Shown: piece after piece, positions 28,328 through 62,391 of the stretch
How positions within the stretch are numbered: the stretch's first letter is position 1
Layout: each line of letters begins with the position of its first letter
DNA from: a virus
Virus record (IMG/VR): IMGVR_UViG_3300008267_000780
Coordinates: 1 to 64,000 of that record
Length of the DNA: 64,000 nt
Direction: 5' to 3' (one strand)
The notes under the pieces: generated by a model
Database searches by the model: none
What the model was told of the DNA's origin: nothing
The model's input: the letters and a program-made list of their open reading frames with translations, nothing else
Made by a program: the position numbers and the translations under genes

Positions 28328-29149
28328 ATGAGAGAACCATTATTGGGCGTAGCCGTCGGAAAGAAAGGTGTAGGTAAAACCTTTACGACCAATAGGGTCA
28401 TAAAACAATATGTGATGGGTAATCCCGCTTCGGGAATTATGCCAAGAAAAGTTTTGATTTTAGATGCAAACGATGAATATACTGAGTACAAAGCGATTGC
28501 ATTAAAAGATTTGATGTTGTTTAGTGTGCACCCTATGGTAGAAGCAAGAAGAATTAGGCCAATTCACGCGGATGGTAAAAAAATGACCTTGGACGATTTG
28601 GCAACCACTTTGAATTACATTTTGGAAGTTTTTTCGGGTGGACTTTTATTGATTGAGGATATTAATCGTTTCACTTCTGATTTTATGCCTCAAGATTTGA
28701 TGGGAGCAATTGCAACAAATCGACATCGTGATTTGGATATCATTTTGCACTATCAAGGAATAGGTCGTATTGGAACAAAAGTGTGGCAAAACATAAATTG
28801 GCTCAGGATGCATAAAATTACTGAGTCAGCGATGCGACACGCGAAGAAGTTTGAAGACAAATATGAAATAATCCGCATATGCGAATTAATGGTCAATACA
28901 CAATTCTTTGCAGGTAACGAAAGGTACTATCAATATATTGATTGTGAGAATATGTGCTTTCAAGGTAAGGTAGATGAAAAGTTGTTTGCAGAAGCCTGTA
29001 AATTGTTTATTGAAGAGAATTATCGTAGAATTATTTCGCCTCTTTTACAAATTCGTGGAGTGGGTGACAAAAAGAAATTCACGGCTGATACTGCAATGAA
29101 GTCAGAAATGGAAAGATTAAGGAAAATGTACTTGAAAAAACAATTGTAA
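28328..29149 (+). CDS. genome packaging ATPase, A32/P9-like (FtsK-HerA superfamily)
   Basis: Walker A GKKGVGKT near the N-terminus, Walker B LLLIED, NRH...IILHYQ Arg-finger/Gln motif; 273 aa, no nuclease domain. Confidence 0.8.
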   Translation: MREPLLGVAVGKKGVGKTFTTNRVIKQYVMGNPASGIMPRKVLILDANDEYTEYKAIALKDLMLFSVHPMVEARRIRPIHADGKKMTLDDLATTLNYILEVFSGGLLLIEDINRFTSDFMPQDLMGAIATNRHRDLDIILHYQGIGRIGTKVWQNINWLRMHKITESAMRHAKKFEDKYEIIRICELMVNTQFFAGNERYYQYIDCENMCFQGKVDEKLFAEACKLFIEENYRRIISPLLQIRGVGDKKKFTADTAMKSEMERLRKMYLKKQL

Positions 29150-36431: not shown

Positions 36432-37171
36432 TGAGAACAAACATCAGTAAACAGTTAGGATTGCCCGTTGCTCCCCCAAGAGCAAAAGCCCCATCTATAG
36501 AAAAACAGTTGGGTTTTGTGGCCGAATATGATAAGTCTTTGGATTCAAGCAACTTGAATTTCTTTGCGGAAAATGACAAGTATTTTAATGCTTCAGGAGA
36601 AACAAAGAACTTTAATGAGTACTATAAAGGGAGTGAAGCCTCAGTGCGCTCTGTATTAGAGGGCTTAAAAATAAACACGTCTGAAGACTTGGACTATCTT
36701 GAATCTGAGAAAAAAAGATTTCAGGAAGGCAAGGCAACTTTAGAACGCGATATTAACGCCATCAAAATAAATCAAGCGCAAAAAGCATTTGGTACTCAAG
36801 CCTACACTCAGCGTGGAAAATATGTTTCTCAATTATGGTCCGTAGATAAAACAATCGAGGGAATTGACAAAAGAATTGCTGATGTCAAGGTTATTTTGGA
36901 GAAAAAAGCCGCAAAAGCGAAGGCTGATGCAGAAGCCGCTGCAGCGAAAATGAAAGCAGAGGCTGAAGCCGCAAAGCAGGCAAAAATTGCCGCGTTGAAA
37001 AAGCAGATTGCTGATTCAAAAGACCCAAGTGTAAAAAAACAACTTACTGACGAACTCACAGGACTTTTGCAAGAAGGAACTGAAGGGCTTAAATCAAACA
37101 AAATTGTTTTGATTGGTGGAGCCGTGGTTGTAATCGGTGTTTTGTATTACTTTTTTAGGAGCAAGCAATAA
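36431..37171 (+). CDS. coiled-coil virion membrane protein (C-terminal TM)
   Basis: YFNASG motif; Ala/Lys-rich coil; TM. Confidence 0.7.
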   Translation: MRTNISKQLGLPVAPPRAKAPSIEKQLGFVAEYDKSLDSSNLNFFAENDKYFNASGETKNFNEYYKGSEASVRSVLEGLKINTSEDLDYLESEKKRFQEGKATLERDINAIKINQAQKAFGTQAYTQRGKYVSQLWSVDKTIEGIDKRIADVKVILEKKAAKAKADAEAAAAKMKAEAEAAKQAKIAALKKQIADSKDPSVKKQLTDELTGLLQEGTEGLKSNKIVLIGGAVVVIGVLYYFFRSKQ

Positions 37172-43786: not shown

Positions 43787-45930
43787 GAATCGCACATATT
43801 CAACCAAGCGTAATTTCAGTCCCCCCAAATGGATGGGGGGCAATTGAAAAAATCATTTGGGAATACAAAATGGTTTTGAATCAGTTAGGACACGTCTGCG
43901 AAGTAGTCAATTTGCAAGATTTAAAGGCCGAAGAATGGGACGTTGTTCATTGCCATATGTTTGACCAAGCATTGTGGTTGGCCGAACAAAAAATCCCATA
44001 TTTCTATTCTCACCACGACCATCATTCGATAGTGTGGGGTGAAGAAAGTGCTAACTATCAATTAAATCTGAAAGCAATGAGACTTGCTGAGGTTGCCTTT
44101 GTTCACGCGAAAAGTAGTATTGAGGTCTTCAAAAATATCCCTTATTATTTGAGTCACGGTGTCAATACTGAATTCTTTAATTTTGTAGAGCCGAAAGGTA
44201 TTGATGAGCCAAATATTATTATTGTAGGAAACAATGGTTTGGCGGGGACTGAGAAAGTATTTGACCGAAAAGGATTCAGATATGCAATAGAGGCGGCACG
44301 TGAATTAAAGTGGTCAATTACTATGGTTGGCCCCAAAGCAACCCAAGAACAGTTTCTTAGGGAAAACCCTGATTTGCAGTATGAAAAATTAAGGTTGGTT
44401 TTTGATGCGGACGAAGAGCAGTTGAAGAAAGAACTACAGAATGCTCATTTAATGATTCACGCTACGTTTGTAGAGGCAGGTCATCCCCCTTTAACACCGT
44501 TGGAAGCAATGTCTTGCGGGGTCCCTGTAATTGGCACACCAATGGGTGACGATGTGCCTCAAATAGTATGTGAAAGAACTACCGAAAGCGTAGTGGAAGG
44601 AATTAAACAATTTGTATTTCAGAGACACGCATTAATTGAAGAAGCACGTCAAATTGCCGAAAATTACGATTGGAAAATTATTGTAGAAAATAATTTATTG
44701 AAATGGTATTTTGAGGTATTGGACCGAAACAATATGGCTAACACGGCCCGTAGAATTTACCATCAATCGACCATCAATAAAGTGCAAGACACTATGATGT
44801 TCAAGTATTTAGATGGTGCAAGGGTTGATTTGGTTGGCAGTAGCGACTTTAAATACAAATCAGAATTATTTATTCAAGACACTCAAGAAGTTATTTACGG
44901 TTGTGAAATAAAATGCGGGATGTTCGCACAATCTGCAAGAAAATATCATCGTAACTATGCTTGGAAAATCACAGATGAAAAGGGGAACGAATTCATTCAA
45001 CCTTACGATGCAAAAAACAAAAGGGTTTACGTGGCCATCGAAAGTTCAAGTTTAGGAGATTCCTTGGCTTGGATGCCGATTATAGAAGAGTTCAGATTGG
45101 TTCACTCCTGTAAATTGATTGTAAGCACTTTTTGGAACGATATGTTCAAGGATGCATATCCTGAAATTGAATTTATCAGGGCAGGTACACCCGTGAATAA
45201 TATTTACGCGATGTACAGAATAGGTTGGTATTATGAAAACGATGGATTGGATGTTCATTTTGGACATCATTCGAGGGATTTTCGCAAATTCTCACTGCAA
45301 GGTACGGCCTGTGATATATTGGGCTTGCCCGACATTGAAGTCAAACCCAAAATAAAAGAAGTTGAAGGTCAAAAATTCAATAAAAAATATGTGGTTATTG
45401 CACCTCACGCTTCGAGTCATTGCAAATATTGGCACAATGAAGAAGGATGGGCTAAAGTGGTCGAATTTTTAAACGACTTGGGATATGAAGTTTGGAACAT
45501 CTCAAAAGAGTCTGCATCAAGCGATTGGGAGAATTCTAAGTTGCCAAAAAACGCCTTAAAAAATGTAATTGATAAGACAGGAGACATACATATAGACGAA
45601 AGGATTTCTCAAATAAAATCCTCATCTTTGTTTATTGGATTAGGGAGCGGACTTTCGTGGTTGGCTTGGGCCTGTAGTACACCTGTTGTCCTAATAAGTG
45701 GTTTCTCAAGGCCTGTAAGCGAATTTACGGATTGTACCCGTGTCTTTAATCAAAATGTGTGTAATGGATGCTTTAACGATTACAGGCTTGATGCAGGTAA
45801 TTGGAATTGGTGCCCTAAATATGAAAATACTGACAAAATGTATGAATGCAGTAAGTCGATTACTCCTGAACAAGTAATTGATGCAATTAGGAAAACACTA
45901 AACAAGCACCAAACAGCACCCGATGGCTAA
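43783..45930 (+). CDS. GT4 domain fused to TibC/Aah-like O-heptosyltransferase
   Basis: GWGAIE, EAMSCG; SSSLGDSLAW, KYW, FIGLGSGLSWLAW, ISGFS.P..EF, iron-finger CNGC...WCP...EC. Confidence 0.85.
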   Translation: MRIAHIQPSVISVPPNGWGAIEKIIWEYKMVLNQLGHVCEVVNLQDLKAEEWDVVHCHMFDQALWLAEQKIPYFYSHHDHHSIVWGEESANYQLNLKAMRLAEVAFVHAKSSIEVFKNIPYYLSHGVNTEFFNFVEPKGIDEPNIIIVGNNGLAGTEKVFDRKGFRYAIEAARELKWSITMVGPKATQEQFLRENPDLQYEKLRLVFDADEEQLKKELQNAHLMIHATFVEAGHPPLTPLEAMSCGVPVIGTPMGDDVPQIVCERTTESVVEGIKQFVFQRHALIEEARQIAENYDWKIIVENNLLKWYFEVLDRNNMANTARRIYHQSTINKVQDTMMFKYLDGARVDLVGSSDFKYKSELFIQDTQEVIYGCEIKCGMFAQSARKYHRNYAWKITDEKGNEFIQPYDAKNKRVYVAIESSSLGDSLAWMPIIEEFRLVHSCKLIVSTFWNDMFKDAYPEIEFIRAGTPVNNIYAMYRIGWYYENDGLDVHFGHHSRDFRKFSLQGTACDILGLPDIEVKPKIKEVEGQKFNKKYVVIAPHASSHCKYWHNEEGWAKVVEFLNDLGYEVWNISKESASSDWENSKLPKNALKNVIDKTGDIHIDERISQIKSSSLFIGLGSGLSWLAWACSTPVVLISGFSRPVSEFTDCTRVFNQNVCNGCFNDYRLDAGNWNWCPKYENTDKMYECSKSITPEQVIDAIRKTLNKHQTAPDG

Positions 45931-48900
45931 AAACATTTTAATCACACCCTATAGGAATTCCACGAATCCTTTAGAGTTACCAAAAATAGACTTCATAAAT
46001 GGCTCTACGGCCATTACGCTTCAAGTTGAAGAAACTACACAGTCGATAACTTATGTTGGTTCTGCAGGCACGCTTTTGCAAATCAATAATGATTTAACAG
46101 GCACAACCGTATCCACAAAAAACATTGCAATTACAGGTGTTATTAAAAACACAGGTATAACCTCGAATTCGGGGTTAAATGATTTTGTGGTAGTTGATAT
46201 TGCTACGGGTCAGTTTTACTACCGTAGTGCACCAACGGGTACTTCAGGTTCTTCGGGTCAAAGCGGCACAAGCGGAACTTCAGGAGCCAACGGCTCTTCG
46301 GGTACTTCGGGAGCCAACGGCTCAAGTGGTACTTCAGGGGCCAATGGTTCGTCAGGTACCTCAGGGGCGAATGGCTCATCAGGAACATCGGCATCAAGTG
46401 GAACTTCAGGCTCTACAGGTTCGTCGGGAACTTCAGGTGCAAATGGTTCATCAGGGACATCAGGTGTAAATGGTTCATCAGGAACATCAGGAACATCGGG
46501 TGAAAATGGTAGTTCGGGAACATCGGGAGAAAATGGCTCTTCAGGAACATCAGGTGAAAATGGTAGTTCAGGAACATCGGGCGAAAATGGCTCAAGTGGA
46601 ACATCAGGTGAAAATGGTAGTTCGGGAACATCGGGTGAAAATGGTTCAAGTGGAAGTTCGGGTACTTCAGGAGCAAACGGAAGTTCAGGAACTTCAGGCG
46701 CAAATGGAACATCAGGTACATCGGGAGGCAGTGGAGCGTCAATAAGTGATGGTTGGGATTGGGGTACACCAATTAATGCAACCAAAATGTATTCAAGCAA
46801 TGGTGCTTTGGATTCATCCTCAGTCTTATTGAATATTTCGGAAACTTCGTTGACATCTCAAAACTATGCGAGTCAATTTTCATTGATTGGTATTGGTTCA
46901 AAAATTACAACACGGGGTGGATTGTTTGGAGCAAATGTGACGGAATGGGAAGTTACATCTGTAACCGATTCAGGCACATATTATGAATTTGGTGTAACTT
47001 ATCTTTCAGGTACTCAATGGACTCCATCAACGGGAGACGATATTTTATGTGATTTTGCTATTGCGGGTCAAGCGGGAACAAGTGGAACTGCGGGAACGTC
47101 AGGTGCCAATGGTTCTTCGGGAACGTCAGGGGCGAATGGCACATCAGGCACATCAGGAGAAAATGGAACAAGCGGAACATCGGGCTCTACAGGTTCATCA
47201 GGAACTTCGGGAGCGGGGGTTGCTAATTATTATGCTCAATATAGCAGTAGCGTATCACAGGCTATTGCAGTAGTTAATACCCCTCAAGTTATCACTTATA
47301 ATACCGTCGAAATAGAAAATGGTATTAGTTTTTCAGGAGGTCAAATAACCGTACAATACTCAGGTATTTACGAATTTAGTTTTTCTCCACAAGTTGAAAA
47401 AACACAGGGTGGTACAGCAGTCAACGTAGATTTTTTCATTAGAAAAAACGGATTTGACGTAATCAGAACAGATTCTATCATTGGATTGGTATCCAATAGT
47501 CAATTACAACTTCCTTTTGTTTCTTTGACTTTAGAGTTGTTACAAAATGACTTTATTGAGTTACTATTTGCATCCTCAAGTACGTTTGTTCAAATAACTG
47601 CGGAAGCCGCTAAAACTACACCATTTGTGGCCCCCGCTGCACCATCTGTAATTGTAAGCCTTAAAAATATTGGTGTTGCAGCGGTGGCTTATACCTCTAC
47701 ATCAGGAAGTTCAGGACAAAGTGGTACTGCAGGGGTTTCGGGAACAAGTGGTTCTACAGGAACTTCAGGTTCTTCAGGCGAAAGCGGAACAGCAGGTACT
47801 TCGGGTATTGCAGGTACTTCGGGTACTTCGGGCGATAGTGGTTCAAGTGGAACGTCAGGAACAGGAGGTTCGTCAGGTTCTTCAGGCGATAGTGGTTCAA
47901 GTGGAACTTCAGGAACAGGTGGTTCAAGCGGTACTTCAGGAACAGGAGGTTCATCGGGTTCTTCAGGAAATAGTGGTTCAAGTGGAACTTCAGGAACAGG
48001 AGGTTCAAGTGGTACTTCAGGAACAGGAGGTTCATCGGGTTCTTCAGGAAATAGTGGTTCAAGTGGAACTTCAGGAACAGGCGGTTCGTCAGGTTCTTCA
48101 GGGAATAGTGGTTCAAGCGGCACTTCAGGAACAGGAGGTTCGTCAGGTTCTTCAGGCGATAGTGGTTCAAGTGGAACTTCAGGAACAGGCGGTTCAAGCG
48201 GTACTTCAGGAACAGGAGGTTCAAGCGGTACTTCAGGAACAGGAGGTTCGTCAGGTTCTTCAGGCGATAGTGGTTCAAGTGGAACTTCAGGAACAGGCGG
48301 TTCGTCAGGTTCTTCAGGCGATAGTGGTTCAAGTGGTACTTCAGGAACAGGCGGTTCAAGTGGTACTTCAGGTTCATCGGGTTCAAGCGGAAGCACGGGG
48401 ACATCGGGCTCAACGGGCTCAAGCGGGTCAAGCGGAAGCGCAGGAACGTCAGGTTCAACAGGTTCAAGCGGAAGTGCAGGAACCTCAGGCTCTACAGGTT
48501 CATCAGGAACGTCAGGCTCTACGGGTTCATCGGGAACATCGGCATCAAGTGGAAGTTCAGGTAGCGCAGGTACTTCAGGAGAAAGCGGTAGCGCAGGTAC
48601 TTCAGGTTCTACAGGTTCAAGCGGTTCAAGCGGAAGCACGGGGACATCGGGCTCAACGGGCTCAAGCGGGTCAAGCGGAAGCGCAGGAACAGGCGGTTCA
48701 AGCGGTACTTCAGGAACAGGAGGTTCGTCAGGTTCGTCAGGCGATAGTGGTTCAAGTGGAACTTCAGGAACAGGCGGTTCAAGCGGTACTTCAGGAACAG
48801 GCGGTTCGTCAGGTTCTTCAGGCGATAGTGGTTCAAGTGGAACTTCAGGAACAGGCGGTTCAAGTGGTACTTCAGGTTCATCGGGTTCAAGCGGAAGCAC

Positions 48901-59106: not shown

Positions 59107-59364
59107 ATGGAAAAAATATTATTATCAGAAGAAGAATTAAATGAATCACGAATCATTTCTCAAATTCAAAATGACTTGAATTCTCAAATCGCGACTTTCA
59201 CAAGACAAATTGAATCGTTAAAATCCAAGCGTAAATATGCAATCCAAGAATTCACAGAATTAGAGGAAAAAAACAAAGTCTTTTATGAGCATATTACTAA
59301 GAAATACGGTGTTGGAAGCATTGATTTGGACACGGGTGAGTTTACCCTAATAAATATCAAATGA
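59107..59364 (+). CDS. small coiled-coil protein
   Basis: coil ending KYGVGSIDLDTGEF. Confidence 0.65.
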   Translation: MEKILLSEEELNESRIISQIQNDLNSQIATFTRQIESLKSKRKYAIQEFTELEEKNKVFYEHITKKYGVGSIDLDTGEFTLINIK

Positions 59365-59834
59365 TAGTTGTTTTTTATGGGAAAAGAAACTCAGGCAAGA
59401 CAACTCTTTGCCGTGAGTTTTATGGTTGGGTAAAACAGAATTTGCCTCTCAGATGTCATTACTTAGATGCAGACAAACTTCGGTTTGTTTATGGTCTAAA
59501 AGGATTCTCTGAGCAAACAGAAAGAGCATTGGTACAAAAAGCGATGGAAATATCGCGTTATGAGGAAAGTTTAAATGACGTTGTTTTGATTAGTATTTCT
59601 TTTGCATATAAGGACCAAAGAGAAGTTTTTGAAGAAAACAGGGGAATTTTATGGATACCTTTGACACACGATGAGTCTCAAAGGCCCACGAATAAAAAAG
59701 AATTTGAAAACGCTCAGTTCGAAAAATTGGAAAATGAAATTGACACATCGCAAAATGATGTGAAATCGGCATTAAATACAGTAATCCAACGCTACAAAGA
59801 TTTTTGTGTAACTTCGCAATACAAGGGGAAATGA
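59361..59834 (+). CDS. P-loop kinase, adenylylsulfate-kinase-like
   Basis: GKRNSGKTT and YLDADKLR. Confidence 0.65.
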   Translation: MIVVFYGKRNSGKTTLCREFYGWVKQNLPLRCHYLDADKLRFVYGLKGFSEQTERALVQKAMEISRYEESLNDVVLISISFAYKDQREVFEENRGILWIPLTHDESQRPTNKKEFENAQFEKLENEIDTSQNDVKSALNTVIQRYKDFCVTSQYKGK

Positions 59835-60361: not shown

Positions 60362-60678
60362 TGGAGTTTTCAAAAGAAGTAAAAAACGCGGTCATCATTG
60401 CAGTTGCGACAATTACTTTATATGTGCTGTTGAAACCAAAGAAAAATAGTCTTAGCAAGCCTATGAAGGCGACTAAAGACGAACTGAGTCAAAAGCAAAA
60501 TGCTCGAACCATTTTGGATGCTTACTTAAATGCAGTTGATGCAAAAGAATCATCAACAGCACTACAGAAATTGAACGCAATTTTTGCGGACGAATATTCA
60601 ATGAAGGTGTATAAAACAAAGAGTGGCAGTTATGTAGCGCGAACCTTAGACGGTAAAGATGTATTAGTAGCAAAATAA
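60361..60678 (+). CDS. membrane protein (N-terminal TM)
   Basis: AVIIAVATITLYVLL followed by KPKK. Confidence 0.7.
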   Translation: MEFSKEVKNAVIIAVATITLYVLLKPKKNSLSKPMKATKDELSQKQNARTILDAYLNAVDAKESSTALQKLNAIFADEYSMKVYKTKSGSYVARTLDGKDVLVAK

Positions 60679-61127
60679 TGGCCACGTTCAATCCAATCAT
60701 AACGACATATCCAAATGACGCAATCAGAGTTACAAGCGCGTCTGATATTAGTTATGAAACGGTGAACGCAAGTGTGGGTACGGGTTACTATTATGATTTC
60801 AAAAGTTTTTATCAATTTTCATCGGTCTTAGAGCAACTTCTTGAACCCATATACTTGCTGAAATTTAGTAAACAGGGTGACAGGAATGTTTACTATATGA
60901 ATAATACAATTGACCCATATCAGGGTACATCGGCATTGTCTATAGATACCGAATTTCTTGATTACAGGTTTGATTCAAACAACGCTTTCATCCCAAGAAT
61001 TCTTGGAAATACAACCTTGTTTTATCGCTTCGATATTCACGAATTAAGTAATGAAGATTTATTGACAAGGGGAGAAAGTAATTTTGGAATGATAGATTTT
61101 TACGAAGATTACGAAATAGATTTCTGA
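60678..61127 (+). CDS. minor capsid protein, paralogue of the MCP C-terminal part
   Basis: QLLEPI versus QLLETI, TIDPYQ versus TVDPYQ, YRFD versus YRID, ILGNTT versus VLASTT. Confidence 0.7.
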   Translation: MATFNPIITTYPNDAIRVTSASDISYETVNASVGTGYYYDFKSFYQFSSVLEQLLEPIYLLKFSKQGDRNVYYMNNTIDPYQGTSALSIDTEFLDYRFDSNNAFIPRILGNTTLFYRFDIHELSNEDLLTRGESNFGMIDFYEDYEIDF

Positions 61128-61489
61128 TGCCCGCCAAAAAAATGATATTAAATATTGAAAACCATACGCCCTATCCCGCGTATATTTCTCTTTTAGGTGG
61201 TCTTCAGGACCCAAACCAATATAATATCAATGCTCAAACAGAATATTTGTATGATATCGGTAACTACAATTGGGCGACATCAAGCATATGGACTTTACAA
61301 TTCAAAAGGGTTGGAGCATCGACTTTCAGTGTACAACAGGGGCCTACAAACGGAAGTTCACAGGCATTTTTGATAAATTTAAATCTTTCAAGTTTAGGGT
61401 TGTTCAATACGCTTAGAGTGAGTTCAACCATATTTCTTCTGTACACTTTCAATGATTACTACGAGTTTGGTACACTTACAATAAACTAA
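61127..61489 (+). CDS. minor capsid protein, N-terminus resembles the first MCP strands
   Basis: MILNIENHTPYPAYISLLG versus YIIQIANTGSAVSNFSVLG. Confidence 0.55.
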   Translation: MPAKKMILNIENHTPYPAYISLLGGLQDPNQYNINAQTEYLYDIGNYNWATSSIWTLQFKRVGASTFSVQQGPTNGSSQAFLINLNLSSLGLFNTLRVSSTIFLLYTFNDYYEFGTLTIN

Positions 61490-61511
61490 AAACCACCCCG
61501 AAAGGTGGTTT
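61489..61511. terminator. hairpin between convergent blocks
   Basis: AAACCACC-CCGAAA-GGTGGTTT. Confidence 0.6.
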
Positions 61512-61605: not shown

Positions 61606-62391
61606 TCAATCATCTGTATAAGCAAGTTTTGCATAAAGGCCCTTTTTTGTGGGCTTTTTGTCGTTTATAATGATGACTCTTTCTTCATCATCAAGGGTCA
61701 AAACTGCACCTCCTTCAACTTGGTCGTCAAAACTTAAAGCCCTTGAACCCAAGGAGTCTTTTGGCAGTAGTTTAGACAACTGTTTCAACACGATTTTCTT
61801 TAGCATCCAAAATTGACTGTCTTTTGCGTCATTGAAATACAGTTCGTTTCTATTTTGAAGATTCTCCACAATCGTTTCCAATTCTTTCTTAGACATCACC
61901 TTGAAGACCTTTTCTTCATCGCGCGTTTTGACCATCGCGTAAATGTGAGTTAAAGAAATCGATGTTCTCAAATCGTCTTTGGGTTTGTGACGTAGAATTG
62001 GGTCAAGTCCAAGTTCATAATCGAAGTCATCCGCCTCGTGCACAGACTCACACCAAATTGATTTTACGCCATTATTTCGCATCAAGAGTGTGATTACACC
62101 TTTGTAGCCTAAAATAGGCTTAATTTGGCCCTTGTAGGGCAAAAAGAAAAACTCTCCGACTGATGGATTGGGGCTCAAACCCAATTCTGCACAATGAATG
62201 ATTGCCGCAAACAGGTTGCGAGGATTTTTTTGGAATGCAAACAGCATTTCTTCATTTCTCCTGACTTCAGTTAAAACAACTTGTTTGAACTGAGCGGGCG
62301 ATATGGAATGATTTTTCAACAAATCGACCAATACCTTTTGTTCAAAAGTGTCGAGTTGAATACTAAATTTTGTTAAAAGGGCGTTATCCAT
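61606..62391 (-). CDS. recT: RecT-family ssDNA annealing protein
   Basis: CAELGLSPNP..GEFFFLPY, ILGYKG, MLKKIVLKQLSKLLP. Confidence 0.9.
   Translation of the reverse strand: MDNALLTKFSIQLDTFEQKVLVDLLKNHSISPAQFKQVVLTEVRRNEEMLFAFQKNPRNLFAAIIHCAELGLSPNPSVGEFFFLPYKGQIKPILGYKGVITLLMRNNGVKSIWCESVHEADDFDYELGLDPILRHKPKDDLRTSISLTHIYAMVKTRDEEKVFKVMSKKELETIVENLQNRNELYFNDAKDSQFWMLKKIVLKQLSKLLPKDSLGSRALSFDDQVEGGAVLTLDDEERVIIINDKKPTKKGLYAKLAYTDD

Follow-up and report, generated by a model that had tools for sequence, protein, structure and literature searches.

What do the last two genes of a long viral operon encode, when the first resembles the putative major capsid protein (MCP) of the same virus, the second does not significantly resemble that protein and both lie 30 kb from the MCP gene? 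We addressed this question in the window, that is, bases 1-64000 of the 74.7-kb IMG/VR virus record IMGVR_UViG_3300008267_000780, in which open reading frame (ORF) A (60678-61127, 149 amino acids) and ORF B (61127-61489, 120 amino acids) close a translationally coupled plus-strand operon. A preliminary description of this DNA had placed both ORFs, and their distance from the MCP gene, correctly; it read the pair as a split capsid-protein paralogue forming a penton or vertex protein with a jelly roll completed in trans. In outline this interpretation was largely on target, with partial support for a two-part vertex protein in which the order of the modules varies. On balance, we lean towards the view that A and B, two polypeptides of a large tailless virus, make up one vertex module, with A as the penton base and B as a spike-base adaptor docked through a hairpin.

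By sequence comparison, A is a true homologue and paralogue of the core of the putative MCP, at a level far beyond chance. BLASTP aligned the two proteins with 31% identity across 64 amino acids (E 0.002), and hhalign gave a probability of 88.5% (E 2.7e-6) with narrow profiles. With the broad A family (64 sequences) against the MCP family, the probability rose to 99.0% (E 4.9e-18, 106 columns) and residues 12-120 of A were paired with MCP residues 91-198, which bears out the earlier by-eye alignment to the MCP from about residue 90. An HMMER scan of 1.84 billion protein cluster representatives with the A profile matched 137 representatives, mostly of 140-160 amino acids, nearly all of which are also matched by the MCP profile (top score 61.6 bits). 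Across the 74.7-kb genome, the A-family hidden Markov model detected only A itself and the MCP (70 bits), so the genome holds exactly two paralogues. In the hhalign register, the eight core strands of A correspond one for one to the eight of the MCP. A begins at the equivalent of about MCP residue 46 or 86, and it has neither the 50-residue acidic leader of the MCP nor its extra N-terminal hairpin (MCP residues 56-71). It is under purifying selection (ratio of non-synonymous to synonymous substitution rates, dN/dS, of 0.09-0.11) and diverges faster than the MCP in the same relatives (84% compared with 91% identity).

The second gene proved less tractable. B had been thought to begin like the first MCP strands, on the strength of a gapless match between MILNIENHTPYPAYISLLG and YIIQIANTGSAVSNFSVLG (I.I.N......S.LG) with 6 of 18 identities. 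This part of the preliminary description did not hold up: hhalign of B against the MCP was not significant (E 0.42 with narrow profiles; P 0.048 and 0.055 with broad profiles), and a position-specific scoring matrix (PSSM) of the hairpin, built from 27 non-redundant B domains, scored only 1.0 at the MCP site of the window, a value reached by 645 of 5,000 shuffles (p about 0.13). The same matrix scored the N terminus of the giant fibre protein of the operon and many A-family N termini above the MCP site, which marks the hairpin motif as a generic pattern. The likeness of B to the MCP is thus not above chance at the sequence level, and shared ancestry is not demonstrated. B as a degenerate copy of A was also considered and rejected (hhalign P 0.28, E 0.19). 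B is itself under purifying selection (dN/dS of 0.14-0.16), and the hairpin (residues 4-26) is its most conserved segment, with an entropy of 1.95 bits compared with 2.5 bits for residues 37-75. The two best non-self scores of the hairpin PSSM in the genome, both weak, fall in the fibre N terminus (45923-46150; 9.0 for AITLQVEETTQSITYVGSAGTL and 8.8 for QINNDLTGTTVSTKNIAITGVI) and could reflect either docking hairpins or chance.

Despite this lack of similarity between B and the MCP, A and B are one functional unit, as indicated by their overlapping codons, the purifying selection on both, their conserved order and the existence of fusions in both orders. The A stop and B start codons share one base, which suggests translational coupling; the same TGATG junction occurs in the relatives L001 and L004, and the ATG of A overlaps the stop codon of the preceding gene in the same manner. 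We found the A gene in 26 of 33 IMG/VR records reached through the MCP. A gene with an N-terminal B domain followed A directly in 23 of these 26 contigs and lay ~4 kb downstream in 2 more, so that about 25 of 26 contigs have the split form with A preceding B. Fused versions, which the preliminary description had proposed to look for in relatives, also exist. The B profile matched the C-terminal halves of seven longer A-family proteins (P0152, of 272 amino acids, P0153, P0165, P0181, P0226, P0235 and P0236), and the viral contig L105 carries a fused gene of 290 amino acids, bringing the A-B fusions to eight proteins. P0157 (265 amino acids) is the sole B-A fusion: its residues 5-92 match the B profile (34.2 bits, E 3e-10, 284 sequences), and its A domain follows at residues 120-242. 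A search of IMG/VR for loci related to the P0152 and P0157 fusions found nothing. The idea of a split capsid paralogue in swapped order therefore survives in part: A is the paralogue, the unit has two parts and their order varies, as P0157 illustrates, but B is not demonstrably derived from the MCP.

Other arrangements were seen in these families. Three A-family proteins (P0255, P0261 and P0264) have the hairpin motif near the start, at residues 2-4, and 130-175 unrelated residues between it and the A core, an arrangement resembling a domain insertion after the first hairpin; among such inserts, only that of P0157 is demonstrably B-like. About nine relatives have a gene of ~155 amino acids between A and B (L080:1928-2404, L081:1041-1535, L083:1943-2422, L085:1940-2413 and about five more), and none separates the two genes in the window. 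The intervening protein has a conserved His, an 'NCEHF' motif and a C-terminal transmembrane helix. By eye its sequence looks like that of an LRAT/NlpC-P60-type (H-box/NC) enzyme, and it may act at the vertex as a lipid or wall enzyme.

To see how the two parts might fit together, we turned to the fused relative P0152, the first half of which is ~29% identical to A of the window and the second half ~45% identical to B. AlphaFold2, run with a 146-row alignment, returned a model with a mean predicted local distance difference test (pLDDT) score of 88.9 and a predicted template modelling score of 0.79. The model shows a jelly-roll-like sandwich followed by a knob resembling domains D2/D3 of the flagellar cap. 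The A part contributes eight main strands (7-10, 16-20, 37-47, 57-62, 68-73, 85-89, 101-107 and 112-122); beyond it come a linker helix (134-146), to which the conserved tail of A (residues 121-149) corresponds by alignment and model, the B strands 154-163 and 169-173, a short helix and an alpha/beta domain. Fold matches to the sandwich start at about residue 19-39 and end at 164-178, crossing the A/B boundary at about residue 150, and those to the knob span residues 187-272. For several sandwich matches, the aligned length exceeds the number of residues available before residue 127, which places strand 154-163 inside the sandwich of A in the model. The model thus suggests that the sandwich takes in the first two strands of B. 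Because the core of A already has eight strands matching those of the MCP core, B would extend the roll rather than provide missing canonical strands.

Variation in the relatives points to what B may do. Their B-domain proteins often have 223 to >400 amino acids, and Pfam identified an NHL/SBBP beta-propeller C-terminal to the B domain in L080, L082 and L083, 3 of 8 longer relatives tested. These propellers suggest that B is the N-terminal anchor of variable spike proteins, and the penton or vertex role envisaged in the preliminary description fits them. We therefore favour the penton-base and spike-base assignment on the strength of the paralogy of A and the MCP, the faster divergence of A, the terminal position of the pair in a coupled operon and the fusions. 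In this scheme, A, a single jelly-roll paralogue of the MCP, most likely supplies the pentamer on which each fivefold vertex is built. The conserved N-terminal hairpin of B would bind A and extend its sandwich, leaving the small alpha/beta knob of B exposed at the exterior. The same module anchors longer spike proteins in relatives, some of them ending in NHL beta-propellers. Hairpin docking, pentamer formation, location at the vertex and attachment of fibres by B are what we infer from these data; completion of the sandwich in trans, in permuted order, is plausible but unproven.

Several observations weigh against this assignment. Three related genomes that are 94-100% complete (G001, G014 and G015, the records behind L027, L052 and L054) retain the MCP, with A and B undetected, so their vertex proteins must differ or be very divergent. 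Foldseek found no match at E 1e-3 or better for the fused P0152 model in the PDB or BFVD, and penton proteins were absent from the listed fold matches of this model. In models, A has eight strands without any contribution from B, and on its own it aligns over residues 16-125 to the complete jelly rolls of nucleoplasmin and satellite tobacco mosaic virus. The 232-amino-acid MCP is moreover a presumed capsid protein, whose BFVD matches are C1q-like. A bolder version of the scheme, which we regard as tentative and rather doubtful, is that A and B represent a split and circularly permuted copy of the MCP, the hairpin of B taking the place of the extra N-terminal hairpin of the MCP in a two-polypeptide sandwich. 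The lineage, with genomes of 75-100 kb, would then build its shell from one vertical single jelly-roll protein, an organization that has been proposed as ancestral to double jelly-roll capsids.

The alternative that survives best is that A and B form a second, tower-bearing MCP, of the type of the large MCP of P23-77 and HHIV-2, which would join the 232-amino-acid protein in pseudo-hexameric capsomers rather than form pentons. Known vertical single jelly-roll viruses use two MCPs: P23-77 and HHIV-2 have a small and a large one, one of them with an upper domain, and an FtsK/HerA-type ATPase, features that recall the system described here. The base-plus-knob shape of the fused model would suit such a protein, as would a genome with just two jelly-roll paralogues, the MCP and A. 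However, the MCP genes of P23-77 and HHIV-2 stand side by side, next to the ATPase gene, whereas here 30 kb separates the MCP and ATPase genes from A and B, which sit at the distal end of the coupled operon and are dispensable in some relatives, being undetected in the three near-complete genomes that retain the MCP. This location and this dispensability make a second MCP less likely. The faster divergence of A in the same genomes and the variable C-terminal domains of B, propellers included, also speak against it, and the extra MCP-like genes of relatives, where present, adjoin the MCP gene (L078 and G021). We consider a second MCP unlikely, and a vertex module the better account of the pair.

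Whether the 232-amino-acid protein is a capsid protein at all bears on a further alternative, namely that A and B are structural or adhesin jelly rolls that act jointly, for example in a fibre-tip or membrane-associated complex, with no role in a capsid lattice, in which case the putative MCP may not be a capsid protein either. The MCP was modelled as a jelly roll, with pLDDT of 77-94 across residues 51-200: a disordered leader (residues 1-50) precedes an N-terminal hairpin (56-62 and 67-71) with a short helix, and eight main strands plus an extra short strand (173-175) follow. Together, the hairpin and the eight core strands make a roll of ten or more strands with a C1q-like shape. In BFVD, the top matches of the model are C1q/TNF-like domains of fibre proteins from giant viruses and phages (E 7e-4 to 4e-3), and fibre and glycosylation genes abound in the operon. 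Against this, capsid and penton jelly rolls are prominent among the fold matches of the MCP model, the 232-amino-acid family is the most conserved and most widespread of the group (1,277 cluster matches), its gene directly follows one for a HerA/A32-type ATPase, and we found no HK97-fold MCP, portal or tail gene, nor any other tailed-phage hallmark gene. An adhesin pair therefore strikes us as a little less probable again than a second MCP. Least credible, in our estimate, is that A and B are mere neighbours whose products do not touch, with incidental fusions and a modelled contact that is an artefact of covalent linkage: the distance of ~4 kb between them in two relatives and the lack of sequence similarity of B to A or the MCP would be consistent with this, but independent fusion events have produced both orders at several degrees of divergence, about 25 of 26 contigs keep the gene order, the A stop codon overlaps the B start codon, and a free N-terminal hairpin is the most conserved segment of B.

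Returning to a penton base with a spike-base adaptor, the closest described system is the vertex of PRD1 and PR772. In PR772, P31 and the N-terminal base of the spike P5 together make up a heteropentameric penton base, and P2, a beta-propeller protein, binds P5 (PMC6750898). As there, our model pairs a small jelly-roll protein with a distinct spike polypeptide, which would join the penton base through its N-terminal part, and a beta-propeller receptor-binding element would likewise be attached at the spike, as in PR772 (PMC6750898). The A32/HerA-type ATPase and the many small membrane proteins in the genomic context add to the likeness. There are also clear differences: A and B have no sequence, Pfam or PHROG relationship to the PRD1/PR772 proteins, B would contribute a two-strand hairpin and a knob where P5 contributes a whole jelly-roll paralogue, and the genomes here are of 75-100 kb compared with 15 kb for PR772. 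Further, the putative MCP is a single jelly roll, whereas the MCP of PRD1 is a double jelly roll. FliD D2/D3, the outer domains of flagellin and those of tail sheaths also rank among the nearest known counterparts. Another is chain L of PDB entry 2W0C, probably the PM2 spike protein P1; in contrast to that protein, the two parts here are separate genes in the window, their order is reversed in P0157 and the distal fold is FliD D2/D3-like.

The viruses carrying these genes appear to form an undescribed yet widespread group, comprising 61 IMG/VR contigs of 45-102 kb. They are tailless, with a single jelly-roll capsid candidate, and probably contain a membrane. A literature search found no description of the group. 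A, B and neighbouring proteins had no matches in Pfam or PHROGs (for A, none at E up to 1); no PDB sequence matched any of the three profiles (A, B and MCP) below E 0.1, a tblastn search of INPHARED phage records with the MCP came back empty, and ESM Atlas searches with the MCP and B returned unnamed clusters only and no structure. The A/B pair thus offers a first functional handle on the vertex of this group. Split, A-B and B-A forms within one family constitute a natural series, rare among viral jelly-roll proteins, that should be useful for studying the exchange of penton and spike modules, and the domains C-terminal to B, such as the NHL propellers, are marked as likely host-recognition parts. 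If the hairpin is indeed donated in trans, the pair would clearly exemplify a capsid-fold domain that depends on a second gene product for its completion.

Some relatives carry extra MCP-like genes (L078, at G008:27091-30546; G021:36022-36339 and 36747-37061; G018:17510-18418). In G008, where the second gene is 45% identical to the main one, and in G021 it adjoins the main gene; G018 also shows further matches, so that two capsid paralogues may be in use in some members of the group. Four records of 68-74 kb (G004, G010, G019 and G023, behind L032, L041, L062 and L068) are classed as having inverted terminal repeats, which point to linear genomes, as in protein-primed viruses.

Table 1. Coordinates of the A/B pair, its subregions and associated genes in the window.
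Feature	Position	Strand	Remarks and basis
HerA/A32-like ATPase gene	28328-29149		Weak DUF87 match
Putative MCP gene, 232 amino acids	29490-30188	+	Beta-rich; directly downstream of the HerA/A32-like ATPase gene
Collagen-like fibre gene, 4183 amino acids	45923-58474	+	Same operon as A and B
ORF A, 149 amino acids	60678-61127	+	Candidate penton-base jelly roll, paralogue of the putative capsid protein; ORF listing
A residues 12-120	60711-61037	+	Core in common with MCP residues 91-198; eight beta strands in the homologue model
A residues 121-149	61038-61124	+	Conserved C-terminal tail GESNFG..FY.DYEIDF; invariant columns in the A alignment
TGATG, overlap of A stop and B start	61125-61129	+	One shared base; sequence
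ORF B, 120 amino acids	61127-61489	+	Candidate partner module, N-terminal hairpin and distal knob; ORF listing, C-terminal half of fused relatives
B residues 5-25	61139-61201	+	Predicted beta hairpin (ILNIENHT...ISLLGG); entropy, P0152 strands, fold-match ranges
B residues 36-120	61232-61486	+	Predicted distal alpha/beta knob
Terminator-like hairpin	61490-61511	.	Between the operon end and the convergent RecT gene; scored on the minus strand
RecT gene	61606-62391	minus	Convergent with the A/B operon; Pfam match

In addition to these features, the A/B operon holds several small membrane proteins, and the window as a whole encodes many small transmembrane proteins, glycosyltransferases, RusA, an SLT transglycosylase and a PAP2 phosphatase. 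Upstream of A in the same late operon (59361-59834) lies a gene for a P-loop protein of 157 amino acids with weak APS-kinase/AAA matches (E 1e-4 to 2e-3).
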